The notes: generated by a model from the letters alone, not told the origin. A stretch of DNA of 64,000 bases from Marsupella aquatica (GCA_973895155.1 OZ316891.1:11223875-11287874), one strand, 5' to 3'; numbered from the stretch's first letter, positions 7,995-63,399 are shown. A program made the numbers and translations.

Positions 7995-10900
7995 CAATTT
8001 CCCTCGACCAAAATCAGTAAATTAAGTAATCAGGATGAGTTGATTTGATGCCACCCATAGGAACACAATGAGTTGATTTGAGGCCATCCACTCGAGCGGA
8101 ATTGGTTGATGTGACGTCGTCCAGCCAATTGATGTGTATTCGCTTTTTGTCGCCCAGCCAATTGAACAATGGTAATTATGTAGGTCTGCAGTGTGCCTAT
8201 CCGAGACATCATTCTACACTTGAGATCGATGATTCAAGCTGGCCAGTTTCCAATCATCCTACTGTAGAGATCGTTCTGCTGGGGAGCTATAAGTTTTATG
8301 CATTGGCCCTGAGTTTAAAAATAAACAAGCTCTGGTGTACTTGGGTCCGATTCCATTGCAGTATTTACGACCTGTTGTACTAGCTGGTACACAGCATAGA
8401 CGGATCGGGGAAAATATTGCAAGTATACAACGCCCAGCTGAAGGTTAACGCCACCTATGAGGACAGTCGCTGACGAACTGTGTCTGGTGTGTACAATTAC
8501 AGATTTGTAAGTACTCTTCGTCGTACGCGAAAGTTCTTGGGCGACAAATCATCTTGAGTATGTATCGCCAACCTGAATTGTAACCCATTTGCAGCTGGGT
8601 TTGAGAAATGCACAACCGTTCGACATTGAAAAGAAATGAAGAAGACTATATGAAGCTAAACTGCAGAATACCTTAAGTTAGATCGACTCAGAAGGCCTTT
8701 GAACCTAAGTGATGGGAATCGTCATCCGAGCGACACGCTCAAAATAAAATAATATTTCCACTAGTCGGTGCCAGCAGGCAGGCACGCGGTAAGTGGATCA
8801 GCTTCAAAAGCTGCTGATCGAGGTCGTCCTGTACAAGGCAACGGTCGCAGATTAATTATACGTGAGTCCCCTTGCATGTCAATCAGGTCTAGCTCGTACT
8901 TCGTCAAGGTCACTGCAACAATCATACAATAAATGTTCTGACAAAGTCATTTCCATGCCATAAGGAGCGCATGTCGCCAAACCAGGGATGTTGAGTGATC
9001 TGTCGACTTCCTCGAGCATACGAAGAGTAGAAAGTATGAACTGGCGGTGTTTGGTATCCTAAAAGTCCTTCTGCAGTCCAATGAACAGGCTCTGATAATT
9101 CGGTCCGACCCCATCTCACAGGCAAGCATTTAATGCTGAATTCACTTGCAAGGATCAAGGACGGATCGATGCTAAATTGCCAATATACGTACCTGGTTCT
9201 GATCACTGTCGTTCAGAACTCGCTCGAACATGAATTGGAGATAGTCATCATTCTAATCTACGCCAAGAGTTATTGTAATTCGAAATTTGATGTCCAGAAT
9301 TGATGGAGCCATCTCGCAGACAGCTTGAATTTTCTACCCAGCAGTATCATTCAACTGGATTCTGACCAGTCAATTTTGTCAGCTAGATACATGCGTGATG
9401 ATACGGTGGATATTGTTTTCTGCCGATCAGCATTGCATGGCGCGGTACTAGCTCTGCACTGAAAGTACAGCCTCTAGCCTCATGGCATCGAGCTTACTGT
9501 GGCATTTCCGATCGTGTGATTACTGTAGAACCTTGAGCAGATTTCTTCTACTTTTCCTTTTGGCACCCACCTGGTGTTACAAACAATTAACAACAGAAAC
9601 AGTTTCGAGTGGGAGAGTTCACCGTGGCCTTATGCATGCAGACATCCCATGGACGTGCACTGATGCCCGTCGTTTTATATTGTTTCCTTCTTAGGACAGA
9701 CTTTGTATATGATAGAAAGAATCCACTACCGTAGGCCGTCACGAGAGGTACATGGGAGCCACACGGTTTCTGAGTCGAGACTCGAGCGTGTGGAGCATGT
9801 AGCATGGACTTCATGGTAGCTCTCAGGGTAGATGGTCATCAACCTACTTGCGATTGACCCACAGTGACAGCTGCATGGATCCAGGATATGATCTGATTTG
9901 TAGAATAACTTTTAGAGTGCGCCCGAAATTTATCAGCTTAAAACATTTAGACATCGATCCAGCTGACAGAAACAAATATCTCCTGCAGCAGAGTCACTCC
10001 TTTTGAGTTTCGTAGTACTGGGCTAGCTCTGCATATTCGACTTTTGACATTCCACATTTGTAGTGGAATGTTTTGCGTCGAACTTCTTTGTTTCTTTTCT
10101 CCATCTCCAGCTGCAGATCCAGGTCTCCGAGTCAGATACCACTGACATGATCTACATTCACATTACAGTAAATGGAGATCGATAATTATACATATCTATA
10201 TGTGCGTGGAGGCCGTGAGAGCCATATCTGTTTGCGCATATTTGAATGAATAGGGAACTCCAAATCAAAACGGAATCCGAACAAGGTTCAAATTAGATCA
10301 GATGTTTCAGGAGTCGGAGTGATCGAGCGATTCTTCAAGGGCCCCCGTTGGCACATTAAGCATTCAACGTCGAGGTCATTCAGGAGCAGGCCTTGCTTGT
10401 TGGGTAGACATATAGGAAACGAGATCATGTGAAAACCTCTCAAGAGCGACCGGGCAGGAAGTATTGACTGAGCGAGCTGGTGGCATCTGCTCACCTACAG
10501 CAACTGAGGAGCAAACTTGGAAAAGAATCAAGCTCTTTTGACCGAGGTCGGTGTGGCTTTGTAGCCTGGCTTTCCAGAAGTCAAGAGTAGGGATCGAGAC
10601 ACCAACCAAGAAAGTTTTTAATCGGTGAGCCGGGTCCCGTCTCCGACATTGCGCCCTCGATCAATTCTGGAACCTTGCGATGCCCTTCGGCTTCCGTAGC
10701 TATGCTCGACCAGCTCCAGATTAGCAGACAATCGCTGCAAAGTCTCTGCCAAGCTCAGGAGAACGCACGTACAGACCTGTCTCTTATCTACTGTAAGTTG
10801 TAGTTTTCTGTACCTCAGCTAGCTTGCTCTGATAGAAACGAGACTTCTGGCTCGGCTGATTTGGATTAGAAAGTCCCTCTGGTTTTTGGTTTGAACCTAG

Positions 10901-41500: not shown

Positions 41501-42171
41501 TTCCTTTCACTTTCATAAACCATTCATGTTGTAAATTAAAATTGTGTCCTATATAGCCCTTGTTTTTCTGCATATATTGGACAGCATGGCTGTAGTACGA
41601 GCAGCTAAAAATTAATAATAAAGGTGTTTCATGCAACGGTGCTCCATATGGAAAACTTGGGGTCCAACAACTTAGCACGTATGGATGAATAGTTTAATTT
41701 GCAAAATAACCTCAAATAATCGATGTTTACACTAGGTCTTTTTGATGCACAAATTAAAAGAGCCCACCCTCCTCTGCTCTACTCTACTTTTAATTTTTCG
41801 GCCAAATTCAAAGCCTTGTTGCTCGGATGATTCTCTTGCGACTACTGTATGTTGAAGGTGAGCCCCAACAAGCTCTTCTTGATAATATCCTCTTGTCCAA
41901 CTAAGATCATCAGTACATTGTCAAATAACAAAAATAATTGCAATAGTCCTGATCACTATATAGAGAACTAACTTTTAACGTCTGATAGCAAGTTGGTCCA
42001 CCTCCATGCCAAGGTGCTAACTAAGCCATGCAGAGGTGGCACTCCACAACTATTGCTCACAAAAAGGCCTCTACTTAGACAAATTTAATGACTCTTGCAT
42101 TCGGAGGGTTAAGATATGCATACTCAATGATTTGAGAAAGAGCGTTACCAAAATGCAGATTCAGGGAAACA

Positions 42172-42820
42172 TTGGATTTGAGGGACGCGGAGGATTAATT
42201 TCATGAAAATTTAAGACAAACAAATGAGGCACAATGTATGGTCTAAAATAATATTTTGGCAGTTGGGGGCAGTATGAACTATCAGGGGGCGCGCAGGCGG
42301 TGTGTGATAAAGTGATTATTCCTAGAAGGGGTTTAAGTATGAAATTGAGAAATTTCCAAACTTTTCAAACCTTACATAGTGCATTATGGGGACGGAAAGA
42401 TCTTTGAGTAACGTCAAGACCCAAATATTAGTGATGTCCCTTGAGTAGGGAGGTCCAGCCTATGACCAAAGAATGGCTTTTGCTTAAAGCAATATTGGAT
42501 TTGAGGGACAAGAGTATTTCATGCAAATTTAAGACAAACAAACGAGGCAGAGTGTATGGTCTAAAATAATATTTTGGCAGTTTGGGGCATTGTGAACTAT
42601 CAACTATTGCTAGGGGCAGGAGGTGTGTGATATAGTGGTTATTCCTAGAAGGGGTATAAAGTATTAAATTGAGAAATTTTTAAACTTTTCAAACCTTACA
42701 TGGTGTTTAATGAGGACGGCAATATCTTTGGGTAAAGTCAAGATGACAAAGACATTGTGGTCGGCCCAAATATTAGTTATGTTCCTTGAGTAGGGAGGTC
42801 CAGCCTATGACCAAAGAACA
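42172..42820. repeat. ~320-bp tandem duplication
   Basis: attggatttgagggac...gtatggtctaaaataatattttggcagtt...gagtagggaggtccagcctatgaccaaagaa at ~42172 and ~42494. Confidence 0.9.
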
Positions 42821-43949
42821 GACTTAATTCGCTTAACCCAAGGCAGTCAGGACGGCAAGAAGGTTAAGTCCCCTTTGTAAAGACATCTGAGTGGGACGTC
42901 CACCATTTCTCAGCATAAACGGCCAAGAGAGACCGGGAGGAGCCAAAAGAGGCTTGGATTTTACCTTGCACATATGTAAGCTTCCACAGTCCTAGTGGAT
43001 CAATTGTTTGAGTTTTTCTTGTCTACATTGTATTAAGGCCAAAGTAACCTTGGAAGATTACATGAATAGATACAAAAGACTTTTGTTATAGTTTCATTTA
43101 TCATAGTGAATTGTTGTCCATGATCCACAAAGAAGGTTGTTAGTTTGTCACCTTGATCAGCTTGCCCAACCAAAGGGCCCAATGTGTAGGCACAACCACA
43201 TCAGCTAACAAGGGGAATTTACAAACGATAGCAAACAGATAACAGTAACAGGAAACAGATTCTGGTACCAGTTAAAAGGAGCTGTTACCAGTGAACAGTG
43301 TTTGGATGGTCGTGAACAGTTATCTTAAAAAAGGTCTCAAAATCTCCATTTGAAAGTACAAGAATAGAAAACAAAACCACCAAACCCTCGTGATAAATAA
43401 AAGAACAACAAGGAAACAATTTTTTGAAACATAAAAGACGGTTGCCAATTGAGATACACAAAATCCAAGACAAATACAAGTAGAAAAGAAAGGCCAGAAA
43501 AAACATTCGCATATATTATCGCAAAATAGAAAATGCGCTCGGCTTAAGTGATACAAAATGCAGTTATCAACATCAACAATCTGGCCTAAAAATCCCATCC
43601 ATGAAGTCACGGTCGACACCGTTGGAGGTTTTCGACTAATACATGAACAGCGCTCGGCGCTAGCCAAAAACTAACTAGAAAACTAGTCGTTTCTTGGAGA
43701 CAAGATGCGTCCAAACCCAGACAACATAGTCAAGATCCATTCCCTCCCACAAAATCCATTGTCGTTTCAATAGTGCCCGGCGCTAGCCAAAACCTAAATA
43801 GTAGACAACCGGGAAAACTCTAACACCAGAGCTGAGGTCGACTTCAATGCCACAAAATCCGGAAAACTTTAGCAGCGCCCGGCGCTAGCTTAAAGCGATC
43901 AGCAAAAAAAAAATTCCATCTAGCTTTTCGAGTTGCAATCATCATCCAC

Positions 43950-44381
43950 TCATGCTGCTTCTCTCCGCCGATCTTTCTTGAAGCCGAGACCACGCAAACA
44001 AATGTATCCCTCTGAAGGTCCTCGACGAACAGCCCTCATAAAATGTTCATTAGGAATATTACTGTCCTTAAAATCAACTCGCCCGAACATTTCTTGTACT
44101 CTTCGATCGATTGGGAGTACCCCATCAACAAGAACTCCCGGGTGAGACGAAAACTGACTAGAGAACGGAGGCGCAGGGGAATCGACAATCCAAGGGATGT
44201 TCTTCTCTCCAGGACTAATAGCCTCATCATACAGGAGAGCATGACGGTTCCGAAAAGTGGAAGTTTCAGTTTCTTTAGTCTCCATCCGCGATTCAAAAGA
44301 GCTGAAATGGCTCTCTTCCGGACGCACACGAGAAGGACGAAAAGCTGCCTCCCAATCCATTGGCTCATATTGACTCACCAT
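43950..44381 (-). CDS. Hypothetical 143-aa ORF inside the MULE (unknown function)
   Basis: ATG-initiated ORF located between a palindrome cluster and the 13-bp array; no recognisable domain. Confidence 0.35.
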   Translation of the reverse strand: MVSQYEPMDWEAAFRPSRVRPEESHFSSFESRMETKETETSTFRNRHALLYDEAISPGEKNIPWIVDSPAPPFSSQFSSHPGVLVDGVLPIDRRVQEMFGRVDFKDSNIPNEHFMRAVRRGPSEGYICLRGLGFKKDRRREAA

Positions 44382-44529
44382 GTTTCAAAGATCCCGATCT
44401 AATATGTAACCTCTCCTCCCGTAAGAACGTCGTCCGCGAGTGCTATAGCCGACAAAGGTCAAAGAAAGGTCCGCGAAGACTAAGACGCCAGATAAAGGTC
44501 CGCGTACACTACCATTCCGAAACGACCAT

Positions 44530-44880
44530 CAAACTATCATCGTCCCATTCTATTGCCTCCCGTAACTATCTTCGCCTTGGTAACAGGTATCGTCCTGTTC
44601 TATCGCCCTGCTCTAACATCCCGTTCTATCGTCTTCCCAAAACAAAGTCTTCCCAAACAAACTATCATCCCGTTCTATCGTCACGTTCTATCGTCCTCCC
44701 GAAACAAAGTCTCCCCTCCCGTTCTATTATCCCATTCTATCGTCCCGTTCTATCGTCCCGTTCTATCGTCCCGTTCTATCGTCCCGTTCTATCATCCTCC
44801 CGAAACTATCGTCGTCCTCAACTATCGACGTCCCCAACTCTCATCGTCCCAAACAAACCTAAACTGAAACTATAGTCGTC
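44530..44880. repeat. Tandem array of a ~13-bp unit (CTATCGTCCCGTT)
   Basis: Near-perfect copies at ~44738-44795, degenerate copies either side. Confidence 0.9.
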
Positions 44881-45217
44881 CCTTCCGCCCGGTCCCTAAA
44901 CTATGGAATCATCGTCCAGAAACTATGGTCCCCAATGGCTTTCCGACGACTGACTAAAGAACACAATCCAAATGGCAGTTGGTATCCAATGACGATGACC
45001 GTTGACCCCGCCGTTGACAGGAAACGACAAAGACTAAACGGCCATTTAGAGATTCCATTTGGCGAGCGCCAGGCGCTTGTAAAGAACAAAAGTCAAAAGT
45101 AATCAACAAGTAGAGAGAAATCAACAATTTAAAAGGACCCTCAACAGAGAAAAATAATACAGATGTTACAAGCGCCGGGCGCTGCTAAAAGATTTAGCCT
45201 CAACTACCCACTACTTC

Positions 45218-48200
45218 TCACGGCTCTGAAGATTCTGAGTCGCAACCAGAATCTGTACTCTGGGATCTGTCCGTGGACACAGCCTCATCATCTACGTACT
45301 GGCTGCGGGAGAAGTCATCAACATAAGGATGTTTAATGAACTTTCGGTCAACACCCCTTCGTAACCGAAGACCTTTGTTTTCCCAGCAGAGTGTCCTTGC
45401 ACTTTCTGCTTTCCTTGCGGCTTTCTCTGCATAGGAGGGAAGAACAAACCGTTTTTCCGGTGTTTCTACGTTGTGTCTCGCGATCTTCCTCCGCAGTTTG
45501 AATCGTCTCCTTGCATTCCACTCTGACCTGATAGAACAAAGTCCATTTTGTAAGGCGCCTTTCCCCAAAACAACAAAAGAAATGTTATGAATTGACGGGA
45601 ATGGAGAAAGAAGCTTACGAGTTTCATCTGCAGTTGCACGACGCTCTCCCTTTTCCTCCTCGGAGTTTCTTGTACCTTGTTCCTCTCCACCTTCACTCAA
45701 TTCATCATCAGAATCAAAATTGAGAACCGACCAAAGCTTATCTCTCTTTTTTCTGTCGGCAGTAGGAACAGGTGGAGGTAACACTGCAATCTCTTTGGGA
45801 GACAACAAATCCATGAAAACCTTTGAAGCGGTTTCAATAAATTCTTTCCGGTGTTCTATCCTGAGTACAAATCGTCCAGAGAAGTCGCCAACAATGTAAG
45901 AGCTTCCAGCCCCAACAGTCCAATCCATAAAAATATCACGAGGCCGTGTGACAAGCTCTATAACAGATTGCATAAAACCCACAGACAGACGAGCATTTCT
46001 AGCAAACTCCATTTGCGGGAATGGATCTAATTTGAGTGAAGAGAGTCCGATGAAATTGGTAACCGAAGGGTCCTCACTGATGGACAGCGGCCGAAATTTG
46101 GGGTCTTTGGGAATTTTACATTTCCCATTAATTCGGCCAAATATGTCGAGCCTGAGGGTAAACATCTCTCGATCTGTCTTTGCCGCATACATCGGGTCAG
46201 ACATCACAATATTATGCGAGCATATACACTGAAATTTCCTTGACTCCTGACAGGCAGCAATGACTTGCGACATGGGATCGTACTCCCTATTGTGTAGAAT
46301 TACAAGGAACCCATCATCTGATAAAAATGGATCCATGGATTTGAAAAAAGATCTAGCCATTGAGTGATCTGGAATGTTCCATTTAGGAACCTTCTTATCA
46401 ATGATAGATGGTTTGAACCCGGTCGGTAGGTAAATGAAGCCGGCATCCACTCCAAACGATCTTACTTTTCCCCCCCGAACAACTCCCTTCTCTTTAAATC
46501 CCAACTTAACGAGGTCTTTTCCCCATTTCTCCACATCACTAACCCACTCGGGCTTCTCCTCCTTGTTGAACGTCGAGTCAAAAAATTCAGAAAGGCTTGT
46601 CTCAACCATGCAATGGCGAGACACAGTTGTTTTGAAGTTTCCAACTTCACGTTGGAAACCAGAAGCTATAACACACTCCCTTAAAGATTGTCCACCTTCG
46701 ACAGCTCTCTTTCGTTTCTTCCTGGTACTCGTGGCGTCGATAGGAACTATAACCTTCCCTTTGTCGATTGGAGTAATGGGGTCCGATCAAGCTCCCATGT
46801 TTGCCTCGGAAACTTCAGGTGTAGCATCCTTTTTCGTATCTCCCGTTCCCACCGTATTAGACTTCCTCCCTCCTAAAATATAACCAGGTCGTAGTTAGAA
46901 TAAGTACTTTTAAAGTATTGAAAGAAGCTAGCGCCTGGCGCTAACCAAATGCAATTCACTTAAGTCGCAACCGAAGCCTAATAACCAAGAAAGAGAATAC
47001 CCTCAACATAATATTTTTTGCCAGCGCTTGGCGCTGGCAAAATCATGGATAGCAATACTTACTCTTCTTTCCAGATTTAGTAGACTCGCTCGGTGCTGCT
47101 AGCTCCACTTTGGCTTTCGCGCGAGGTTTGCGACTCCGGTCCACATGCACAACAGTTGTTTCACAGATAGTTTGCAAGTTTGTGGCAGACTTGTCTACAT
47201 CGTCAAGTAGACCCTGCTTCATGTCGGACACAAGTTTTGCTGGCATCTGAGACTTTGAAAGCTTATGGAAGGCATCTTTTTCCCTTTGATCAAAAGGAGA
47301 ATCCCATCTATCTGTATCTAGATACCAGGGGCAGTGAGTTCTCTCCCATTCTGTCATTGGTCTCGGAGGAAATATGCCCTCCGTGGGGTACATAGAGTAC
47401 AAATCAGCCAAGGCATCATCTTCACTTATTGAAATCCACTTCATAAAAGCTGCAGGATATGCCCAGAAGTAATCAGGTTTGGTTACCTCCATGTGCATGT
47501 AGAACCTATACACAAACCTCTTCGCTCGCTTCTGGTTTCTCTGGGTGTAATCTTCTTTGTCAGGGTACTTTGAAGGCCACATAGTGTGAAAGAACTTATT
47601 CTTCATGGAATCACCAAATCTCTTGAATTCATTTGTAACAAACTGAACTAGATCATCAAACAAACTACAATTCCACTCTTCCAATCTAATCGCGGGCATG
47701 GTTTGCTCAACTTCACGTAGACATGAATGTAACATGCCAGCAACAATTCCCTCCACACTATTCCAAGTGATCCAAGTGTGGCACCACTGTTTGACTGGAT
47801 CATCGTTAACACTTGCTGGGTGAAAAAACTGTCTCCGCAGCTCAGGATTGCAATGTGCCACAAGTAAAGTGCTTCGTAACTTTGGGTCTAGAGCAGAAAC
47901 AGCGGTGAACAATCGTGCGCGGTCCATCGTACATACAACGGTGTCAGGCTTCTTCTCTCTCTTGTTTCTCTCTGTGACAGCATACATTTCTGCACATGTA
48001 CCGAGGAAATCTTCAAATTCAGGACTTAATAAGGGCATAATTTTTGAAGACTTCACTGCCCAATCTTTGGTTGCGTCTTTCATCATGGCCGCATGCCGTT
48101 TTGAAATCTCATCCGCCGACCATGGACTCCCTTGAGCCTCCGCTGCCTCCATGTCGAGTTTGAATTGATGCGAGTATGACTTTATCTTATTCTCACAAAG

Positions 48201-49272
48201 AATGTAAACAAGTGCTTCTTGTGGCATCTTCTTCGTATACCATGACTCCTTTCGAGTTTTCAGCCGAATGCTTTCAAACTTCTTGAAATTACCCGGGTCA
48301 ATCAGTTTACTGTAATACTCAAGGTCATGCGCCAGAATTCGTTTGATTCTGTCCGCATCCAGGATCCAGGAAGGCTCTACAACTGCTTGGCCAAGCCTAC
48401 ACGAACAAACGTTGAGAGTAAGAGTCAATGAAAAACAATTCATATATAAGCAGCGCCGAGCGCTAGTAAATACAACACTCGCAAGATTTAAGGAAAGAAC
48501 TGGAAATCATGAGAACTTACTGATTCACGGTGTGCATAGCTGCCTCAATTTCAATGAGAGATCCCTTGTCTCCTTTAAATATTGTACAGAGCACACAAGG
48601 ATGATATTTTGGATTGTCCGGGTTCTCCTCTGTTACAAGCGTCCAGGAGTACAGCCTGTGATTTCCATCGAATACAGAGAACATCTTATCCTTCAAGACG
48701 AGAAAATCCGGGTCAGCCTCGCATTCAGCCTCAAACTTCTCATTCTCCAATTGCCATATTGGATCCCATGAATCACGAATGTCCTGGGTACAGGTCAGAA
48801 CAATTCCGTTCTCATCCGTTGGCTGCACATAGAAACGCATCCCTATCGAAGAGTTGTAACCCATACTACGAAAAGAGTCTTTCAGCTTCTTGATGGAAGA
48901 GCTATCTTTCTGCAGAGTACGAACCACCTCCATGTGAACCAATCGATACAGAGGGATTCGAGGCGGCTCCTTGTCAAATCCACGAGAATCCTTTCCAAAA
49001 GACATGACATGTTTCGAAATGAGATCAGTCTCAGCAAGCGCGCAATCCACAACATCCTGGATCGCAATTGTGTCTACGTTGTCCATCTTTCTTCGCAAAG
49101 GATTTGGACCCAAAACACCGCTGACAGAAGTGAGCGGCAACAACTTTGAGGAACGAGTTACACGACGTGTATAGACTGAACCAGTAAACGAAGACTGCGA
49201 AGATTCAGAATAAGCTCGCTCCTGGTCAGGAACCGCACTATACCCTCTGGAAGAAGAGGGGAATACCTCCAT
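45218..49272 (-). pseudogene. ParB/sulfiredoxin N-domain + helical region + beta-class DNA amino-methyltransferase-fold protein; exons ~49272-48521, 48396-47063, 46872-45218; one premature TGA
   Basis: IPLYRLV..VVRTL...IKKLKDSF...FSVFDGNHRLYSW (ParB-N). VDAGFIYLPTG sits at the DPPY position, followed by VIELVTRPRDIFMDWTVGAGSSYIVGDFSGRFVLRIE (motifs X-I-II). GT-AG introns in frame; in-frame TGA at 46787-46789. Confidence 0.75.
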
Positions 49273-50182
49273 CGTCTTCCTTCTAGAAGCGTATGAACTA
49301 TCGTACAATGAAATTATGGAACTATAATCATCTCTGAACGTGTAATATATTCTAGCGGGAGGATGACATAACCTAGAGGAAAGCCATTAGCTCTGATGTT
49401 TGGCGGTTTCCAACGTCTGTATACGGAAGGTTTAATTACCAAAATCAAACGGTAGAAGATGCGTAACACACACGGAAGTCATAAGTTACCGTTGAATGTT
49501 ACCGTTAAAGACATTTCCTAACATCATATCAATACTAGCGTCGGGCGCTAGCATTAATGATGACCATCAAGGTGAAAAATTTAGAGTATGCTTATAATAG
49601 CGCCCGACGCTAGTATAAACTGGAAGAAATTTAGAGGTCTTTTTTGAAGGAGCTATGACATAAATTTCGGCCTTTCCACCCCCATATTTTATTAAAGTAT
49701 CCTTCAGTACATCGTTTACGGAGAAATATTCCTCAAATGTAATACTAGCACCCGACGCTAGTATAAATGTTCATTTATCATCCATAATCCATCAAAACCA
49801 TCCTTTGAAGGCACCATTTATTCCCAATTACCACCTGGTATGTGGTCATAATGTTCATTTTCAGGGAATTTATTCTATACTAGCGCCCGGCGCTAGTTTG
49901 GAATGTCGAGATTTCAGACACATTTTTAGTGGCGTATTTTAGTTAGCGCCAGGCGCTACTAAAATTTGACAATACCTTGTCATATCTTATGGTCTGTTTA
50001 AGTAAGGTTGGTGATCATTTTAGCAATATGTTCGTGTCTGACATCCGGACTTCTCGGGGAAAAAACGACAAAAATCATTTATGGTGCCAACGGATCCTCC
50101 ATCGTCAATGTTTTATGTCGTATACAAACGGATCGGTTAACGTCAAATTCCCAGGTTCGACAGATATAAGCTGAACAATACC

Positions 50183-53100
50183 ATGATTTTTTCTTCTTTC
50201 AAACGCTATAGCCCTCGGTTTTTGTTTTTGTTCACCATGTCTCGGTCTATCATTCTTTCTCGATTCGGTTCTAAAGATATTGTGACTATCCCTGTCCCCA
50301 TGAAAGATACGTACAAGCAGGTCCGGGAGAGGTATCTCTGCGGGAGATTTGATTTGAAGATGAATGACATTGAGGCCATTGGTCGAGAGCTCGAATCCAT
50401 TGATGATATCGAGGATGCTGCAACGTTCAATGTCAATGACGGTGAACGGTTTTGGCATCTCTACGCAGGGATCTCGTACTCGGTTCGTTTAAGACAGCAT
50501 GCAGGATTGTCCAGTTTCCCACCAGTTCCATGTGATGTGGTTGAGATTTCTTCAAGTGAGGATGGAGATCGTACTCTAAGTCCACCGTCAAAGAAGAAAA
50601 GCCCGCTCCCTACTGTCATGAAAGCTGAGACTTCGGGAAGCTGTAAGCAGTTGGAGGTCGTGTACCGGCGCAGTGCGATGGATACGTTACTCAAATCAAC
50701 TGGTCATAGTGAGTTGTCACGGTTCATATCAGCGGGTGATTTCAGGCATGAACAAGTGTCCTGTCTGCCAGCTAAGTACAATGGTAACGTCGTGTTTGAG
50801 TTGCCGCCCATTGATAAGATGCTCTCTAAAGGCTCTAGGCTTAGGGACATGGATCGTGCCAAAGATTGTTACATTTGGACACGCATATTTCCAACAATTG
50901 CAACTGTTCATCCTAAAAACCTTTGGCAGTTTGGGAAGGTTACCTGTACGGGATTCATTGAATGCAGGAACAAGTCCTGCGACTATTTCCAAAGGAAGAA
51001 GAAGGCAAATGCTAAGGCATGGCAGGGTACTCCAAAGCTCAGTGGTCAGTATGCTGTGGGATCTTTCATCGAAGAGGGAGGTGTTGTTTGTCATTACTGC
51101 GAACAGATTCCTTTTTGTGTGAAGTACTGCCCTGCCCGTTTGTTTTACATGTACCCCCAAGTATTACTTGATGCGGAAACATGTAGTCATATGTCCCGCC
51201 TGGCAATTCATATAGGTGAGCACAACCATCCAGGTAGAAAAACCTTTTGTAGGAGTGCGGAGAAGATAGCTGAGGATCTAATTAAAAAAACATGAAGCCA
51301 ATCCTCTATCAAAACCGGCAGGGATCTTGAATTCTACTACAGGGTCCTTAGTGAAATCTCTCTGCGAACATGTTGACGACATGGTCGATATCGAAGAAAC
51401 TGAAATATGGAAGTCTCTGATGGTCCTTTCCACTCCGCAGAAGTTTGCATCTCTTTGTCGGAGCGTTAGGATAGACCAAAAAGGTCGGGGTGAATTAGAT
51501 TTTCTCTCGCAAATGCAGAGGAGGATTCATGTGTCATTTCTCCAGAGGTATTTGCTTCCAGGTCAGGGATGTTAGAACGATAGGCCTCACATCTTTAAAA
51601 TGACCGTGAAAGGTCACGGTTCCGGTGTGGATCTTTTGAGGCAGATGCAACTGGGTGGAAGACTCGAAGGAGCCTGGGTAAGTTTTGATGTGATGCAGCG
51701 TGTCACTACGGATTGGTTTACTTTCAGCACACATGTCTACGACCACAATTTCCGTGCACTGTGTACAATTTTCACATGCGAGTTGAAAGGTGAAGACACT
51801 GAGTCTTTTGAAAAGGCATGGAGAGTGATGATTGAGGTTTGCAAAGAAAATGAACTTCAGGAGGTTGTCATCCAAGGATTTATGGCCGACAATGCACAAG
51901 CTGGATGGAATGCAGTGCAAAATGTTTTTTTTGGTGGACACCCGGACCCGGAGAGGGAGCGCTCTGATGCATTTCACTTTTATCAATCTTTTCATTGTCA
52001 TTCCAAGGAAGGAGTACTGGAAGAATGTCAATCGGAGCATCGGAGACTTTGGGAGAAACTGAGAAATGCTCCATCATTTGAAGTAGCATACCGGGTGTCC
52101 CGAGAGATTGTTGTGTGGTGGCAATCAGGAAACTGTGTCCCCGGAAAGTTGAAGATGCTGCAAAGCTGGATATCTTGGTGGGTTGTTCGCTGGCGCCAGT
52201 GGGGCAATTTTATTTGAGTGGTAAGGCATCCATCTATCTAGACTGTAATGTTCATCAACTTCATATTAGCGCCAGGCGCTGGTTATTTTCTCCATACACG
52301 TCAAAACAAGTAGTACAAGAAATTGAAGCAAATATGTAGTTAGAATTCAGTATTAAACATTGAAATTGTATTTCAGGCCTGTTCTACATATTTATGTTGC
52401 CAGCGCCGGGCGCTGGTAATAGAATACTACTTACGGTTGACATTTTCGTATGGCAGAGCAAAAGCGCTGAGGAAGGTGCCTTGATCCCCAACTGTACAGG
52501 GTCAGAATCAAGGCATGCGTCCATGAAAGCCTCGGCTACAAAGAAAAAGGTCGGTCTTTATGAAGCTTGCAAAGTTGACCAAAACCGCGTCATCCGCGTC
52601 GTGGTGTTCAGAAGCTTCCTCCTTTTCCTGACATTTTGCCTGTTCTGAAGGGTCTTCTGAAATTACATTCCTGGAAGAGCAAGGACTTGTCTTAGTGTGA
52701 ACAACAGGATTGAGTCGATCTGCGCCATCTGCTTTTGACCTCAGGATAAATGTTAACGTGTTCCCAGAAACAATAAGGTTTTTGGAGCCGAATCTCCAAC
52801 TTGGTAGTCGGAATGGGAGGAACTCAAGGCCTCGGTCTAATCTCACTGTGGGTCACATGAAGCGAATGGAGTTTGCACGACAAGAAGTGATGAGTTTGGA
52901 TGGGGAATGGAATGTTCAGACCGGAAATGCTTTTGGAAAGCAATTTCGAATTCAAACCCATGAGAACCATCGATCACCAAGCACATACTTCGTCCAAATT
53001 TGTATCTTCCCCGCTTGCTCTTGTGAAGACTTCTTCCTCCGACATTCGCGTGGCAAGTTGTACATGCCTTGCAAACATCTATACTGGGTGTACATAAATG

Positions 53101-53204
53101 TTTTCAAACTTGAGATTGAGGAGTCGACTCTTTGTAGCCAACCTATTTTGACTTTAGGCAAAGTCAGGCTTGTGCTGGAGAGGCAGAACTTGAATGGCTT
53201 ATGA
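50183..53204 (+). pseudogene. MULE-type transposase with GCM/WRKY-like N-terminal Zn domain, DDE core and SWIM finger; disrupted
   Basis: CTGFIECRNKSC...CHYC...CPAR...HIGEHNHP; WVSFDVM, FMADNAQAGWNAV, FHFYQS, SESRHASMK; CSCEDF..CKHLYWV. Frameshift in the A-run near 51285-51295 and in-frame TAG at 51573-51575; intron(s) at ~52220-52456 and ~52550-52745. Confidence 0.85.
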
Positions 53205-54775
53205 GAGAGATCAAAACTGCCCAATAGGTCGTCGTTCAATATAACGGTTATTCCCTATTTTGTCTTTTTCCAACGAATATTTTAGTTGTTTTATTGAGAC
53301 TTTGTTGGTTAGCGCCGGGCGCTGGTTCTAGGAAACCGAATATTCATTGCTTCATTATGTACGTGCATTGTGGAAGAATGACCTCTTGTTTTATTTAAAA
53401 TGTGTAAGTTGATTAAATTGTCTACTGTCTTCAAAGCCTCGAGGATGTGATTTGTCATTTGTTTGTGACGTTACAAGGTCCATTTAATCAACTCCTTTAG
53501 ATTGGGTTGATTTGGACTCCACGATTGACATGTGCTATGGTGGGTCCCACTCTAAGGGTCACTATTTGGCGATGAAAATAGATTGATTTGCATGAATGTT
53601 TCTTTAGGCACACTCCTAATACCATGTTTTTTATCTTCTACAATAAATTGTTGTGTCAATGGAGGATTGATAGTACACTTCATCCATCGGATGGCACAAA
53701 ATAATTGTTTGTTTTAAACTTTATTGCCCCCCGAAAAATTATGCCATTAGAGTGGTGGATATGCACGTTATGGTTCAGGCAAAACTGGTAACAGGGACAA
53801 GCTTACTGGTAACAGGTACAATTTCCCTGTTAACAGAAAATAAACCCCTGGTAACAGGTTTTCTGTTTTCTGTTTTCTGTCATGGCTATCATACCCGCTA
53901 ACAACTATCATGGCTAGCAAAAGCCACAACTCAAGAGGTCCACATTACTGATTAACAAAAATAAATGAAGAATGAATTTGAGTAGTGCAGATCTATCAAA
54001 CGAGGATCGTCTTGGTAGTAAGCATGTGTGTTTGTGAGTGGCAAACTAAATGTGGACTTGGTTGTATTCTAACTGTTTCAATACTAACTCGTGCTTGTCT
54101 TTGAAACCCACTTTGTTTACCCACTTCGGAATGCATTTATATGCATGCCCATTGCATTATTTACCTTGTGTTAATATTTCAAAACATAATTATAGCTTAG
54201 GTGGCCCCAATTCATGCACATTTTTCCCTAAAAAGTGCCTATCTATGGCAAATTAATAGTAAGATGTGCCCCGGTCAGTCAGAACTGAATCAACTGCACA
54301 ACTATTTGGGAGATGTATAATATAATAAATGAAGTAGCTGACCGGGTTACAAAAATTACAAATGACTAAACATAGTCTAAATTCAAGTTCATGTCAATTA
54401 TATAGGTCAGATTCATTTCTTCTCTGGCTATGGAAAATTCAAAGACATTCTGATTAATGAACTAATTTAGTAACCTAGGTGTCCCTTGTTCATGACGCCC
54501 ACCTTGGAAAGAAGGCGTGAGTCTCTCAAGTACTAACATGTCTCATCACAACATTTACCTGCAAAATAGAAAGTAAGGTAATTGTTAAACAAACAATAAG
54601 AGTTCAATCAAAGGCAAGACAAACAAAGAGTCTAATCCATAGCGAACTAACAGACACATGCAATATACATTAAACCCAAACTAATAAAGATAATACAACT
54701 AGCAATTATATCTACTTTAAGATTAAAATAAAATGTAATACGTCATATTTTATAAGTTCCCTATAAAAACTTACT

Positions 54776-56625
54776 TCATGTGTGGCCAGTTCTATTTCTG
54801 ATAGTCTGGAGTGTCTGGTCCAAGGTATTCAAAGCCCATGACCTTTCTTTTGGCAAATCATTGAAATTTAGTTGTTGATGTACATAGGCTGTCAACCCCA
54901 TAGTGGCACAAGAACTACTTTCACATTCAAGAGAAAGCAGCAAATGCATTCTGAACTTGTCCTCCTCCGATGAGACTCCAATCTGATTAGTTTCATATGC
55001 AAAATCACGAATATCACGAAGACTCTGCACCAAAAAAAAAAATTTGGTGAATTGGAAATTAATAAAAAAGAATATGCAACCAAATAAAATACATTTTTCT
55101 TCACTTACCTCATCGTCTAAATCTTTAACACCATGTTCAAAGTTTCCATGATCATCATTATGATTCCAATAATCAGTGCCAATAGTCTCGATAATATCAT
55201 CTGCATCTTGAATATCAACTTGACCTTCTTCAGGATATGGTGGAGTTAAAACTATTTTAGATTCTCTCTCTCTTGCTTGAAAAGCAAGTTGAGGAATGTG
55301 TGATGGCCTGTTCACACCTCGTTCTCGCACCGCTCTCACTGTATGGGCATTCCATGTTAGAATGATATCATTTACAGTATTCTGAATGAATGGAAGAAGT
55401 ACAGTAACAATGGAGTATCTATGCAAGGGATTATCCATTTGCAAAAATCCTTCCTCGTATGATAGAGTACGAAATAAGTCCTTATAATGACCCAATCCTT
55501 GTTTCTTCAAGAATCCCCAAAATGCTTCGATCCTCTGTAAAAATCACAATGATTGTAAAAAATTAGTATGTTCCTTGAAATTATTTTTCCTTTTATAAGT
55601 TAAAGCCACAAAAACCCCGTGGCAGAGGGGCAACCAGGCCATCAAAAAGCCAGCTAAACAACATGACCCCTGGGAGGGCGGGCATAAAGCATTAACAACG
55701 TACACAGACAACAAATCAGCATCGCGGCCAATGCAACATTGGGCCCCCATAAGTCCCATAGGCAAAAACTTAGTATGTTACTAAACATATCAAGCAAATA
55801 ATTTTGATAACATATAGTTGAGTTTAAGTACTACCTGATTATGAACTGAAGAACCTTTGCAAAAACAATGAGTATTTGGTCTTGCCCTTTCAAGATTATT
55901 TTGGACCAAAATATGCTCAGTCACATAATCAGAACGAATTAATAAAGGATGACCAAATCTTTGAACCGCATTTTTATACACTTCATAAATAGTCCGGGCT
56001 TTCTTATTTAATGCAACATGCATATAATATAATGTGTAGCTCCATCGATAGCTCCATGAATTATAATTCCATAATTTGCTAATTTGTCATATGCAACACA
56101 AGAAATTAAACAAAATTAGTACATCATTTCATGATCATGAACAAACTATCTGAATCATATATAGTCAAAAAATGATTGATTCAATCTAAATAAAAGGATA
56201 TAAATACTTGAATTTTACTCACAGTCCATATGCCAAATATGCATTGCTTTGGTGACATCGTAAACCCGACGTATTAGACATCCGTGTGCTCTTGATGCAA
56301 GTAATCCTGGAACTAAAACATCCAAGGCATCACGTACAAGCGTTCTTGGAACTTTGTATCCATCTCTTTGTAATCGTGCCTTTATCATTCTTATTCCCCA
56401 ATCTTTTGCATATCCATATATGGGAATAAACTCTAGAATCAATTGTCGAACCTCCTCAAGCGTATATGTTGGATACATTTTCTCTCCATTATTAAATACT
56501 TTCAACCATCGCCATAAAGTAATTCGATCTATTCCAAGTGCTAATGCACATTCCTTCATAGTGTAACCAATGTGAAGTGCTGCCATCACATCTTCACACA
56601 TTGAATTGATGTTTGTTGCATCCAT
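54776..56625 (-). pseudogene. IS3EU-like (HTH + integrase-core DDE) transposase, spliced, disrupted
   Basis: HTH ALALGIDRITLWRW; GIRMIKARL..G.KVPR; RRVYDV...WHMD; YDKLANYGIIIHGAIDGATH; GHPLLIRSD..TE; GSSVHNQ|RIEAFW; WNAHTVR. Frameshift at ~56025 and a non-canonical acceptor at ~56095. Confidence 0.8.
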
Positions 56626-56998
56626 ATATTTCCCAAATATTCTCCAAAACTCCAATGAACTAATACTTTATTTTGCCAGTGTATAATTCCACCTTTTTTA
56701 GAACAATTAGAGAACTCTGTCAGAAAAACAAAGGTCACAAGACAAAAAAACCAAGGCTAGTTAGAAAATGTACACTAAGTTGCCATTGCACATACAATAA
56801 AGTAGGAATATTTTTAGCAAAAGATACCATGGATTTACAAAGGATTTGAAAACTATGGAGGATTCTTTGGTATATTCAATGCCCCAATTTAAGCTCTTGA
56901 GAGCATCTATTACAAAAATAAGCAAAGATACAAATGGGCAAACAAAATCAATATATAACATTAAAAATTCTGCTCATTATCATGACTATGAATCATGT

Positions 56999-58330
56999 TT
57001 ATGCATTTTCATTTGAAAATGTGTAGGCACCACCTAGCTTCTCATTAATTGCAATCCCAACTACGTATACCGGTTCTATAGGGGAACATCTGTACGAGGT
57101 GGCGTGCATATCTTTTCCACAAATAAAGAAAATATCCCCATCTAATATTGGAATCTTTATTCCATACTCAATAACAACTAGATGTCCACCTCGTTCCTCC
57201 ATTGAAGGATTTGATGCCATGAACATAGTGTATTTACTACAATCATGATCATTATGAACTATATTACAATAGTTCTTTGTAAGAAATAGAGGATATGTTG
57301 GTACAGCATGTTTCACAACGTTGGGCTTGGAAAAGTATTGAAGTAATTCTTTGCTTAGATCCATGAAAGGATCTTTGCAATCCAAAAATTCCCTCACTAC
57401 CGGCCAAAAATAATCACAAAATAGTAGGAAAATAATTTCAAATAAGATTCGATGGGAGCATTGCTCATGAATTAACTCCAATTGCAATGTGCTAATTGGA
57501 GTTGTTAACTTATCCCTGTAGTAACTCACAAAATGTGCTCATTTTCCTTCTCTCCACTTCATAAGTGGCCCCACAGCTCGGATTATTTCAATCAATGCTG
57601 ATCTCGAATCAGCTCTACGAACAGTCCATTTGTGATTGTAGGCATCAATTATTGAATGCCTTAGAAATGCTCGATCGCCCTCTGGAACAACTCCTTTCAT
57701 TCGTCCCCCTATTATTTCATTGGTAGACCTATCTTTCCAAATTTCAATAGATGACAAGGGATCCATAACATAAAAGTTACTTAGTATCACCTTCCATACA
57801 ATATGTCGTTCTGTTTTGGGTGGGCTAAATCCTCTCTCAATCAAGAAAGCATTTTTATGTTTCACAAGAAACTTAGGGCTTCTCTTCGCAAATGTCTTTA
57901 CTGGGATTTTATGTTCTTCAAATTTTTCAAAATGATCTGCCTTCCGATTTATATATAAAATTGGATCTTTACGAAACTTTCAGACCCTGGTGGCAATCTC
58001 ATTCCCAAGCGAAGATAGATTGTACCGGAAAGTGATCAAGTGGACTATTGTTTTCCACTGATTGGCAGTAAAATACTCAGACCAACGACTGGTTTTCCCC
58101 AAGAAGTGAAAACCAGAATAAAATTTTGATAACTCTCCCTTCATTTTCCCACCGGAAAAGATGTGCAGACCATATTCAAAGAGTAACCAATCACTGAGCA
58201 ACCATTTCAGTAAAAACTGAATATGTAATTTTCCCAACTGAGATGTAAGAGTGATGAGCTCATAGAAATAAATAGCAGTAGGGAAGACCAACAATTGTTT
58301 CTTTGACATAGAGGCTGCATTTAGCGTCAA
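56999..58330 (-). pseudogene. TET/JBP-like 2OG-Fe(II) dioxygenase gene (~440 codons, one frame, two premature TGA)
   Basis: ORFs 57980-58330, 57539-57865 and 56999-57529 share one frame, separated only by TGA at 57980-57982 and 57539-57541. C-terminal VHNDHD (HxD)...GGHLVVIEYGIKIPILDGDIFFI...MH fits the DSBH pattern HxD..GGxL..G...GD...H. Confidence 0.6.
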
Positions 58331-58569
58331 CCTGTGTTTTCAGTTGAAGACTATCTAAGAATGCGAACAATTCAAGCCGGGAAGCAAGCATTGTGGACCA
58401 ACGATGACAACATAATCAAAGAAATCAATTTGTAGTGGCTAAGTTTGTGACGGTGACGAGATTGTGATATCTCTTAATCGAGAAAGGGTTTCCAATGAGC
58501 CTCAATTTGACAAATTTTGTCAAGTTCCATATGAGTTTTTGAATTTCTTTGACTTTCCAATGAGTATGA

Positions 58570-58960
58570 GTATAATAAATTTTGATCATGAGTTCATGAA
58601 TTCTTTTAGCTTTCTAACATTGAGTCCAACATTGACAAATTCATGTCAGATTTTGTCACGGTACTCAAGAGATCAGGAGATTTTCAATCTCTTTAACTTT
58701 CTAATGTGTGACATTGAGATTATTTGTCAAGAAATAGAGAGATCATGAATATCTAAATTTCTCTAACTTTCCAATGAACCTAACATTGATAGATTTTGTC
58801 ACTATTAAGGAGATGATGAGTTTTTAATTTTACTCTAACTTTCTAATGAGTGTGACATTGAGAGATTTTATCACTTGAGACATTACTAAAGAGATCATGA
58901 GTTTCTAAATCTTGATCTTGAATTTTCTAATGAATCAAACATTGGCAGATTTTATCAAGT
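58570..58960. repeat. Degenerate ~75-bp tandem repeat upstream of the dioxygenase-like gene
   Basis: gagatca(t/g)gag...ctctaactttctaatga...acattga recurring at ~58585, 58670, 58740, 58810, 58891. Confidence 0.75.
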
Positions 58961-59710: not shown

Positions 59711-60397
59711 TTAGAGCCAAGAAATATGATTACGAACAGGGGTCTGCAAAGTGGGATCAATGGGATGGAGATGACAATAGAAGAACCATTTGTCAACTCC
59801 ATGGGCACTATGATCATATATCTTTTGATCGCAAGCATATCCTTCTGCCTGACATTCCTTCAAACAATAAAAATGCCACATTGTGGGGCATCAAATGCAA
59901 TGGACAATATCTGTCCAATTTAGGGCATCATGTTCACCACATGCCTTGCATGTATGTAACGGGCAGATAGGGGTGTGTGATGGCAGACACGCACCGCAAA
60001 AAAACCTTACACAAAATCTATCTGAACATTTTTGAACATATTGTGGAGAGTCAAGAGAACCCTCCAAATTCCCTAACTTTCCACATTGGGCACACTTTGC
60101 ATGTTTATGCATGCAGTCTTTGCACTTCCACTTCCCATGTTGGCCAGAAGGTGGGGGAAGGCCGACTCTTGGACAATTATTCTCTGCTGCATGCAAAGAT
60201 TGTGCATTGAGATGGAAGTGCCTCAAGCATGGTCCATCACAAATGACTAACTCTCCACCATCATCACAAATGGCACAACAATGGGCTGCTTTTTGGTAGA
60301 TTTGTTCGCGTGAAAACTTCAAAACATGTGGTCCAAACACAGCTGAATGTCTCACCTCGCCCTTATCTTTTCTACATGGTTGTTTAGGACGAGCCAT
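59711..60397 (-). pseudogene. EDM2/NSD-type tandem PHD-finger region (one premature TGA)
   Basis: CAICDDGGELVICDGPCLRHFH...WKCKDC...CAQCGKLG...CPLHTCKACG...CI*CPTMWH..C...FFYCHLHPIDPTLQTPVRNHI; the last part matches the EDM2 motif YC.xH.ID..L.TP.R.HI. TGA at 59891-59893, TAA at 59711. Confidence 0.8.
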
Positions 60398-60554
60398 GCC
60401 TACACATCCATAAAAAAAATTAATTGTTAGAAATCATAAAAAATTAGGATAAACTCAGAACTAACAAATCATCAAAAATACACAATAATACTACTATTCA
60501 ATGAGCTATTCAAGATTCATGTACAAATTAGTTGCATACTTCAATCTATATAAC

Positions 60555-61985
60555 AAGTCCAAGTACATGTTGTTCTCTTAGCCATGCAGGTCTCACACAA
60601 GATGCTGGTATGATAAGAGTCGCGGCTGCCAAATGTCCCTTCTTTGAACTACTCATTAACAAAATTAATATTCACTAAGGAAAGCATGGTTTGAGAGATG
60701 GAACGCAAAATTTCTAGAGCCACATTCCCTTACCAGAATGGGACCAAACTTTGGTTGCACATACCCCAGGTAGTAGACAACGTGCTCGTGAAGTAAGAGC
60801 ACCAACAAAGCTTTGGTTGAGAAATGAAAAATCAGAGCCTTTGTGGGGTACTCTTGCCTCCTAAGCAACCTCTGACTTCTCTCCCTTGCCACTATTCAAA
60901 CCAGCTCTGACTTGCTAAATCTGCAACCAAGTCCAAGTGCATGTTTTCCTCTTAGCCAGGTCCCTAACAAGATGGTGGTTCATAAGAGTCGTAGCTGTCA
61001 AATGTCCCTACTTTGAAGTACTCAAAAACTATCGTTCGTTAAGGGAAGAAACATTTAAGAGATGGAAGCAGAGGGCGAGGAATTTCTGGAGCCACATTCC
61101 CTGGGCTGAATGGCACCAAACTTGGCCAGCACGTACCTCAAGTAGTAGACAATGTCTTGGCAAAGTAACAGGATGAAGGGAGATTTCAGTGAGAAAATGA
61201 AAAATTGGATGCTCCGAGGCGGTCCTCCTGCCTCCCAAGCCACCTTTGAATCCTCTCCCTTGCCACTACTTCGATCAGCTCGTACTTGCTAGACCTGCAA
61301 ACAAGTCCAACTACATTGTGTTCTCTTAGCCACTTCCCTAACAAGATGGTGGTGTCACAAGAGTCGCAGCTGTTGAACGTTACTGCTTTGAAGTACTCAG
61401 AAATCAATCGTTCTGTAAGGGAAGTAACATTTAAGAGATGAAAGCTGGGAGCGTGGAATTTCTGGAGCCACATTCCCTAGGCAGAATGGGACCAAACTCG
61501 GCCAGCACGTACCTCAAGTAGTAGACAATGTCCTGGTAAAGTTACAGCATGAACAAAGATTTCAGTGAGAAATGAAAAATCGGATGCTCCGAGGTGGTCC
61601 TCCTGCCTCCCAAGCCACCTTCGAATCCTCTCCTTTGCCACTACTTCGATCAGCTCGTACTTGCTAGACCTGCAAACGAGTCTAGCTACATTGTGTTCTC
61701 TTAGCCATGTCCCTAACAAGATGACAGTATCACAAGAGTCGTAGCTGTTGAACATCACTGCTTTGAAGTACTCAGAAATCAATCGTTCAATAAGGGAAGC
61801 AATGTTGAAGAGATGGAAGCAGGGAGCATGAAATTTCTGGAGCCACATTCCCTAGGCGGAATGGGACCAAACTCGGCCAGCACGTACCTCAAGTAGTAGA
61901 CAATATCCTGGTAAAGTTACAGCATGAACGGAGATTTCAGTGAGAAATGAAAAATCAGATGCTCCGAGGAGGTCCTCCTGCCTCC
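60555..61985 (-). repeat. ~375-bp tandem repeat (~4 copies), open as a 125-codon repeat on the minus strand
   Basis: Marker cacattccct at 60721, 61093, 61469, 61844 (periods 372-376). Confidence 0.9.
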
Positions 61986-63399
61986 TTACCAGCTTCAACT
62001 TCTGCTACTTGCCAAGTCTATTTCGACTTCTCTCTTGCAAGGATTCAAAGGAGTGTTCGACCAAGTTTGAGGGTGTGTCATCAGGTTCAATAACTTTAGT
62101 GTGTGACAAATGTTGGCCGCTGATTTTGTTGGCAGCTCATCTCCCTCCTCAGGTTGGGTTGAAATGAATTGCACTCCTGATACGTACGCTTGAAAGCCCT
62201 AGAAATAAAAACACATATAAGAAATCTCAATGGGTATGGCTACCTTGTTTGGGAGCCTACTGAAGTTACTTAATTTGTCCTATTGAGATTTTGTGTTTGT
62301 GTTTTTGTTTTGAATTATTTTGTAAGATAACCATAAGGAACATAACCATGAAAGGCTTAGTTTACAAGGTTCCTTAGTTTTGGTTACCTTATGTTAATTA
62401 AAGAACATCACCATCAAACCCAAACCCAACCACCCGACATTAGTGGATATCAATGTCATAAACCCGGAGGACGTTGCAAGAATTTTGTTAGTTAATTAAG
62501 TTCATATGAAACCAAATTAAACTGTTCCTGAAGACCTGGACCCACGTATTGGTTATTGGTGAGAGTAAGGACTACCAGAATATATTTTATATAGAAAGCA
62601 GGTGCAACTTTGATTTAATTTTATTTAATAATGAGAGTGGTTATGCTTTTGTTTGATTACACTTTTCTTCTATGTGAAAGTGATGTGTCCTTTGTGACTG
62701 GCCCTTAGAGGAAAAGTAACTGGGAAGTCCAATATGGAAGTAAGAACCCAGTATGTTCTTGGTGGATGATCAACAATCCTGGGTCACGTCAATCCTATGG
62801 TGGAAGAGGTCCAAATTCCATTCACCAATGATGACTACAATAATTTCCCACCGGGATAGAAATTTCCACTTGTACCCAATCTTTATCCTCTGGTTTTAAT
62901 TGAGTTGTAGGGTGAGTAGGGAACTAAAGATGCATATGGTTGGCACAATATGCTTGCAGTGTTATTTTCAGATTAGAAAGGGAACAAATATAATTGACTT
63001 GTTGAGGAAGCACGGGTGGGCAAAGTTTTTATCAAATTTAAGTTTTTGAAAGTATTTAACTAACATTGGGGCACATTTGATTGATTATATTCTGAACTTT
63101 CTTGATATCTCAAGGAAATCATTTTTAGATCATAATTTAATATCTAGAATCAAATCTGAATAAAATAGTTTAACTACTTTAATGAAAAGGTTCAATCACA
63201 TAAAAAAAAGTTCTCGTCCTTCTGAAAATTTTCCAGGGAACCAAAAGAAACTTGTCGCTACTAGGGAAATAGTTTAGGGTTAGCCAAATTTTTTGCTTAG
63301 CGCGCCCTAACCTATTAGCCTTCAATCAATAAATAAAGTGGGTTTATTTATTTGTGGTGTTTGTTGGATTGTTCAGATGACAAGTATAACCACCTTATT

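Follow-up and report, generated by a model that had tools for sequence, protein, structure and literature searches.

Why should a single palindrome recur throughout the non-coding DNA of a large transposon? The question is raised by a stretch of 64,000 nucleotides from the liverwort Marsupella aquatica (GCA_973895155.1 OZ316891.1:11223875-11287874), hereafter the window, from whose first letter all positions are counted. A first-pass annotation had described the palindrome, AGCGC-N3-GCGCT, in an element that carries a transposase gene and a second gene, here termed the cargo gene, with ParB-like and methyltransferase domains. It had proposed that the palindrome is a dimeric-protein binding site kept by selection. 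Our analysis leads to a tentative reading, plausible though short of probable: bound to the palindromes, the cargo protein would spare the element from silencing, a form of self-recognition analogous to that of VANC proteins.

Distribution and form of the palindrome

Exact copies of AGCGC-N3-GCGCT numbered 12, every one of them inside the element between 43649 and 53323, with none in the remaining 53 kb of the window; in 100 shuffles the mean was 0.00 and the largest count 0. Allowing one mismatch gave 16 copies (shuffle mean 0.32), 15 of them in the element and the other a stray at 6356, and a site at 49747 with two mismatches was the sixteenth copy in the element. The total in the element was 16 sites, 12 exact and 4 decayed, ordered along it as 3+2+2+1+5+2+1, and the pattern search reproduced the counts and places first reported. 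Sites 1-3 (43649, 43772 and 43874, spanning 43649-43886) lay near the left end and sites 4-5 (45065 and 45171, spanning 45065-45183) downstream of the cargo gene. Cargo intron 2 held sites 6-7 (46930 and 47023) and cargo intron 1 site 8 (48452), whilst the divergent promoter region between the two genes held sites 9-13 (49537, 49599, 49747, 49882 and 49945, spanning 49537-49957). The transposase intron contained sites 14-15 (52268 and 52402), and site 16 (53311-53323) was located downstream of the transposase. Five of the 16 sites were in predicted introns. Both cargo introns recognized earlier carry the motif, whereas a possible third (45528-45618) is site-free.

None of the 16 sites overlapped a predicted exon, as had been noted, although exons make up 65 % of the element and non-coding DNA 35 %. 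The probability of this avoidance was 6e-8 when each site was counted and 7e-4 when the seven clusters were treated as independent. The exons were richer in G+C than the rest of the element, yet site-free. Sequences flanking the sites were mostly unrelated, with short shared flanks only within the left trio and the promoter group, and a tandem-repeat scan found no array covering any site. Lone exact half-sites were absent from the element, compared with six in the other 53 kb. The view that the motif is not a simple repeat was borne out by the mostly unrelated flanks and the absence of such half-sites.

The motif could be refined to AGCGCC-N-GGCGCT, a 6-1-6 palindrome of 13 bp with A/T-rich shoulders; read outward from the centre, the half-site was GGCGCT-R-G-Y-W-W-A-A (32 half-sites). 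The three-nucleotide spacer had been described as variable, but it was C-N-G in 13 of 16 sites and differed by single transitions in the remaining three (TCG, TTG and CGA), leaving the centre base alone free to vary (C in six sites, G in five, A in three and T in two). All eight core deviations were G-to-A or C-to-T changes. Dyad symmetry extending to the centre base is more in keeping with a dimeric DNA-binding protein than with a hairpin. That the palindrome functions as a hairpin in the RNA of introns and untranslated regions is barely credible: a short stem is available at every site (-2.4 to -14.9 kcal/mol, DNA parameters) and five sites are intronic, but the conserved C-N-G is unable to pair across a one-base loop, arms beyond the core matched at 4.4 of 10 positions within a site against 4.0 between sites (permutation P = 0.16), and there was no Rfam match.

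Boundaries of the element and its transposase

The element is a DNA transposon of 10,685 bp (43212-53896) with short, imperfect GGG...CCC ends. We place the insertion at these coordinates, with an 8 bp target-site duplication, because contigs join 43203 to 53897 at an empty site where the 8 letters fit both sides, seen in three of four sequencing runs (X1, X2 and X3). The duplicated copies (43204-43211 and 53897-53904, both on the + strand) are identical. X1-X3 are contigs of sequencing runs with two organism labels from two studies; one of these runs may be the source of the window itself. Summed contig depth over the element in X1-X3, which is not a copy number, was about ten-fold or more above that of the flanks, and the element belongs to a multicopy family.

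Aligned as putative terminal inverted repeats, which in known Mutator/MULE groups may be long, short or absent, the ends scored 53; among 200 random pairs the 95th percentile was 47 and the highest score 67. Within 110 bp of either end stood a near-palindromic motif, CTG(G/T)TAACAG, in two copies at the left (43262-43291, period 20-21 bp) and four at the right (53785-53857, period 21 bp). Its sequence is unlike the internal palindrome, and it is likely the site bound by the transposase. The palindromes nearest to the true ends at 43212 and 53896 were 437 and 573 bp inside them. A role for the palindrome as a terminal inverted repeat or subterminal transposase site was rejected, as it lies far from the ends, where another motif stands; the initial annotation, too, had concluded that it is not a terminal inverted repeat.

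The cargo gene (- strand) and the transposase gene (+ strand) diverge from a shared promoter region. Introns in both were predicted by eye from GT-AG ends and frame continuity. Transposase exon 1 (50183-52220) encodes a Cys/His-rich N-terminal part and a DDE-like core, and exon 2 (52457-53204) ends in a SWIM-like finger; the predicted intron between them (52221-52456) carries two of the palindromes. Exon 1 of the present copy is damaged by a frameshift near 51283 and stops at 51573 and 52215, and exon 2 is also frameshifted. By eye the protein resembles those of Mutator-like elements (MULEs), with acidic motifs, a downstream His and a large zinc-finger-like N-terminus, the core having been compared with the MULE residue pattern. 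No MULE match was found in Pfam up to E = 10 or among PDB sequences. SWIM (PF04434), a C-terminal finger present in many Mutator/MULE groups, scored 8.5 bits (E = 2) against a cut-off of 19.6, and the GCM label given initially had no Pfam match. The 8 bp duplication lies within the 8-11 bp range for Mutator/MULE elements stated in the accessible part of one source (PMC6446971). The element likely belongs to Mutator, the duplication length being the one feature in firm agreement. Metagenome scans with the transposase core yielded no relative, and phage and plasmid searches with it returned nothing.

The transposase might itself read the palindromes, its Cys/His-rich N-terminal domain binding them and activating the element's genes whilst the cargo has some other job. 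The grouping of five sites in the promoter region and the size of that N-terminal part, judged by eye, favour such a role, and the AtMu1 transposase is reported, in the part of the source available, to activate cognate copies sequence-specifically (10.64898/2026.08.24.746577). We nevertheless regard it as unlikely, as the ends, where a transposase must bind, carry a different motif and no palindrome occurs within 430 bp of them.

A probable pseudo-methyltransferase in the cargo gene

The cargo gene comprises three main exons, all on the - strand. Exon 1 (48521-49272; start codon uncertain) encodes a ParB/sulfiredoxin (Srx)-like domain with the sequence DGNHR, exon 2 (47063-48396) a 444-aa domain predicted to be all-helical, and exon 3 (45619-46872) a beta-class amino-methyltransferase fold with a non-canonical catalytic motif; the predicted introns 1 and 2 span 48397-48520 and 46873-47062. 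Exon 3 contains an in-frame stop at 46787-46789 in the present copy. A possible last exon (45218-45527) was placed by splice signals seen by eye, and the intron preceding it (45528-45618) is uncertain.

Exon 3 had 84 relatives at E up to 0.001, and the 10 that were named among 20 representatives checked all came from the liverworts Calypogeia fissa and Riccia sorocarpa. A profile built from 32 relatives matched beta-class amino-methyltransferases (E = 4e-8), and the structural model (predicted local distance difference test, pLDDT, 83) found its best Foldseek matches among DNA-binding beta-class enzymes (CcrM, E = 1.7e-13). Motif IV (position 114) precedes motif I (position 284), the order of a permuted Rossmann fold. 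The catalytic motif [DNS]PP[YFW] was present in 0 of the 47 alignment rows covering it and nowhere in the query or in 88 homologues; for each motif, gapped rows were not counted. Motif IV usually took the form xLPT, with D kept in nine of 47 rows. Residues of the S-adenosylmethionine (SAM) site, read from sequence only, were D in 46 of 51 rows and G in 45 of 51 at motif I, and E/D in 41 of 51 at motif II. Because the catalytic motif was non-canonical in 47 of 47 rows, the domain is probably a pseudo-enzyme.

These counts also bear on the possibility that the cargo is an active N4-cytosine methyltransferase, marking CCNGG or the CpGs of the palindrome with N4-methylcytosine (4mC) and so blocking host 5-methylcytosine (5mC). 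In its favour, the cargo retains the fold and the SAM site, CCNGG stands at the centre of the motif, and 4mC enzymes function in Marchantia and rotifers according to the accessible parts of two reports (10.1101/2021.02.12.428880, PMC8885841). We consider this very improbable given the catalytic motif counts above; moreover, a change of SPPY to APPA abolished the activity of rotifer N4CMT in the part of the latter source available (PMC8885841), and a five-base enzyme target would not require 12 fixed bases.

Riccia sorocarpa contains many members of the pseudo-methyltransferase family (P0050, P0053, P0072, P0075, P0077, P0081 and P0085-P0088). Several are automatically named 'trimethylguanosine synthase', and most keep D at motif IV (DLPS, DPPT). 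Longer Riccia proteins start with a stretch that by eye resembles the end of exon 2, which suggests that these relatives share the cargo architecture. Longer, full-length cargo proteins were sought in vain, weak evidence by the search's own note. Metagenome scans with the methyltransferase exon found no relative, and phage and plasmid searches gave nothing for exon 1 and only weak methyltransferase matches, for two Riccia relatives.

Language-model features from Atlas gave exon 1 scores of 0.95 with a ParB/Sulfiredoxin cluster, 0.94 with one whose members bear DUF3723 in 31 % of cases and 0.92 with one bearing ParB_N in 11 %, whilst ParB had no match to exon 1 in Pfam, PHROG, NCBIfam or PDB sequences. 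The methyltransferase of the original description is probably inactive as an enzyme, and the ParB assignment comes from language-model features, with no profile match. The cluster at 0.94 to the ParB/Srx-like domain (48521-49083) is fungal. DUF3723 is a cargo of fungal Starship elements, and our literature search found no paper naming both. Exon 2 had one homologue (47 %) and a low-confidence model (pLDDT 48); a fold search assigned no fold to it and Atlas gave nothing at 0.9 or above.

Evidence for and against an anti-silencing role

Two decayed positions of the present copy, 49541 and 49750, were perfect in other copies. A joint from 52213 to 53302, seen in X1, X2 and X3, indicated a different donor at the same position of the transposase intron, and its 22-letter side would stop precisely where the motif ends. 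Similarly, the 21-letter side of a joint from 46950 to 47054 in cargo intron 2 (X2) would begin exactly at the motif. Joint sides under 30 letters are often repeat-derived, and here the side letters were not printed and the short side was assigned by arithmetic; read in this way, the two joints suggest diverged relatives that keep the palindrome in otherwise unlike introns.

The CpG observed/expected ratio was 0.73 in the coding DNA of the element and 0.85 in its non-coding DNA once motifs and the tandem array were excluded. The flanks gave 0.37 and 0.48 and gene-like stretches elsewhere in the window 0.77 and 0.86, and CHG followed the same trend. Strong CpG decay of the element, suspected at first as C-to-T decay, was rejected on these values. 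To judge from base composition, the CpG content fits a family that mostly escaped methylation.

The case for binding by the cargo protein rests on the layout of two motifs and two proteins, the VANC-like placement of the sites, the chromatin-type domains of the cargo and the CpG content. We propose that the cargo protein would bind the two-fold palindrome as a dimer and, when bound, would mark family members as self, likely holding off silencing by host methylation. Its methyltransferase domain would act as a pseudo-enzyme that keeps the SAM pocket and adds no methyl group. With sites spaced along the element, both genes and the promoter they share could be shielded or reopened by the bound protein, in the manner of VANC on VANDAL elements, and the terminal motif, not the palindrome, would serve the transposase. 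In a distinctly improbable variant, a ParB-type dimer would load on parS-like palindromes, form a nucleotide-dependent clamp and spread along the element, and the dead methyltransferase would occupy or flip cytosines and thereby block 5mC.

Several observations weigh against an anti-silencing role of the cargo protein. A young or newly arrived family could show equally high CpG, and there was no clear gradient of the CpG ratio with distance from the sites (coding 0.68, 0.74, 0.77 and 0.66). Both genes are disrupted in the present copy. The cargo has no assigned DNA-binding domain or helix-turn-helix, the model of exon 2 being of low confidence, and the palindromes stand in mostly unrelated flanks, with no tandem array as in VANDAL. 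Four of the six promoter differences in X2 and X3 fell inside motifs, which occupy 65 of 511 bp (P = 0.003), and other copies were changed at 49886, where the present copy is perfect. The clustering of promoter differences in motifs implies that individual sites change quickly and that what is retained is the set, not each base. The proposal of a dimeric-protein site kept by selection is in part supported, by the dyad symmetry and the suggested retention in introns, and weakened by these promoter changes. Finally, in organism C (X5) the 31 bases around site 49537, within 49527-49560, had a summed depth of 2,800-8,600 whilst neighbouring bases had 0, and the palindrome there is far commoner than the element. 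Loose ends in organism C held several motifs close together. The abundance of the motif there fits non-autonomous derivatives or related families, and an independent repeat as well.

Loose ends at palindromes were also observed in X2 and X3. One in X2, at 49869 beside a motif, contains the element's ten leftmost letters and may be a short derivative with the motif near its terminus, possibly by chance. A search of viral contigs for a two-site palindrome pattern found nothing.

The sharing of the motif by other sequences, through these loose ends and the very high depth in X5, would also be expected if the palindrome were the target of a dimeric transcription or chromatin factor of the host and the element had gathered sites for expression in a given cell type. 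Such a factor seems rather improbable, as the 53 kb of flanks, gene-like stretches included, contain no exact site and the element has sites in the introns of both genes. For a plant factor, twelve fixed bases with shoulders would also make a long site.

The abundance and close arrays of the motif in organism C, together with the clustering of differences in motifs, could alternatively mean that it is a minute, functionless selfish repeat that is tolerated only outside exons and was spread through conversion or through a non-autonomous element of high copy number; exclusion from exons is expected for any insertion. This we hold to be decidedly improbable. Although most of the remaining 53 kb has no long open reading frame (ORF), it contains no exact copy; the sites share no common boundaries or duplications and their conservation tapers gradually into the A/T shoulders, and the motif is apparently retained in diverged introns.

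Sequence-specific anti-silencing by an accessory gene is already well worked out for VANDAL/VANC in Arabidopsis. If the cargo protein does act in this way, the strategy would have arisen independently in an early-diverging land plant, through an unrelated protein that has a palindrome of its own, and would here have been assembled from ParB-like and methyltransferase parts gained by horizontal transfer. A large unnamed family of liverwort pseudo-methyltransferases would then have a function and the study of DUF3723-like ParB domains a starting point, and a reader of a 13 bp site that removes or blocks silencing would be useful for plant epigenome work. With a precise predicted site and a candidate protein in one element, the idea is directly testable.

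Other features of the element and its flanks

Inside the element, a 143-codon ORF on the - strand (43950-44381) had no Pfam match. Upstream of it lies a 13/16 bp tandem array (44530-44880, + strand) that is palindrome-free; both features showed family-level depth. Immediately left of the insertion site is a direct duplication of ~320 bp (42168-42818). The right flank (54776-57538) contains an integrase-core ORF (PF24764, E = 3e-8), a helix-turn-helix ORF and a third ORF, which perhaps represent another, older mobile element. Further downstream are a very high-copy repeat of 72 bp units with depth up to 46,000 in X2 (58281-58900), and a PHD-finger ORF (PF23011, E = 1e-5) with a 375 bp tandem repeat of 3.4 copies (59891-62026).

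Comparison with known systems

Our literature search, with most subscription papers and repeat databases outside its reach, returned neither a Mutator-like element with ParB/methyltransferase cargo nor this palindrome, which does not establish their absence from print. The cargo methyltransferase domain resembles CcrM, M1.HpyAVI, M.MboIIA, M.RsrI and M.PvuII in fold, motif order and SAM-binding motifs. It differs from these beta-class enzymes in that the catalytic motif is replaced by xLPT, the domain is fused to ParB/Srx-like and helical domains, and the gene is split by introns and carried on a eukaryotic transposon. MpDN4MT1 of Marchantia, also a liverwort, and N4CMT of bdelloid rotifers likewise place a bacterial-type beta-class domain in a eukaryote. 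In the accessible parts of their reports these are host genes with TSPPY/SPPY and demonstrated activity (10.1101/2021.02.12.428880, PMC8885841), whereas the cargo is without SPPY; MpDN4MT1 is there described without extra domains (PMC8885841), unlike the cargo. We did not file the cargo with either protein because it lacks the catalytic motif.

Methyltransferase domains on transposons have been described, in the portions of the sources available, for DAM in DIRS and long terminal repeat (LTR) elements (10.64898/2026.05.21.726589) and for DNMT retrotransposons (PMC5890265), and those of DIRS1 are called likely inactive in the accessible part of another (PMC4738411). These are retroelements with other classes of methyltransferase, and a dispersed target palindrome did not appear in the parts of these sources available.

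The pairing of a ParB/Srx-like domain with repeated palindromic sites recalls ParB-parS. Unlike that system, the present one is a nuclear transposon with no ParA and no detected helix-turn-helix. Bacterial ParB carries a GxxRxxA patch, where the cargo has DGNHR instead. Phage ParB-terminase loci provide a link between ParB and amino-methyltransferases, according to the accessible part of one source (PMC4738411).

The closest functional analogy would be with VANDAL/VANC, although the three main cargo exons had no Pfam match to a VANC-family protein up to E = 1, DUF1985 being the domain of that family. In both, a large element, known or (here) likely to be Mutator-like, has an accessory gene and a short family-specific motif in non-coding DNA, as far as the accessible parts of two VANDAL reports describe (PMC5735166, PMC10398659), and VANC21 binds in introns, intergenic and terminal non-coding regions in the part of the former available (PMC5735166). 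Here the target motif was non-coding in 16 of 16 sites. VANC motifs, as described in those parts, are 8-9 bp long, non-palindromic, in one orientation and tandem-built, whereas the present motif is a 13 bp palindrome in mostly unrelated flanks. If our reading is correct, the Marsupella element would work like VANDAL/VANC without being a member of that system, from which it differs in protein and motif architecture.

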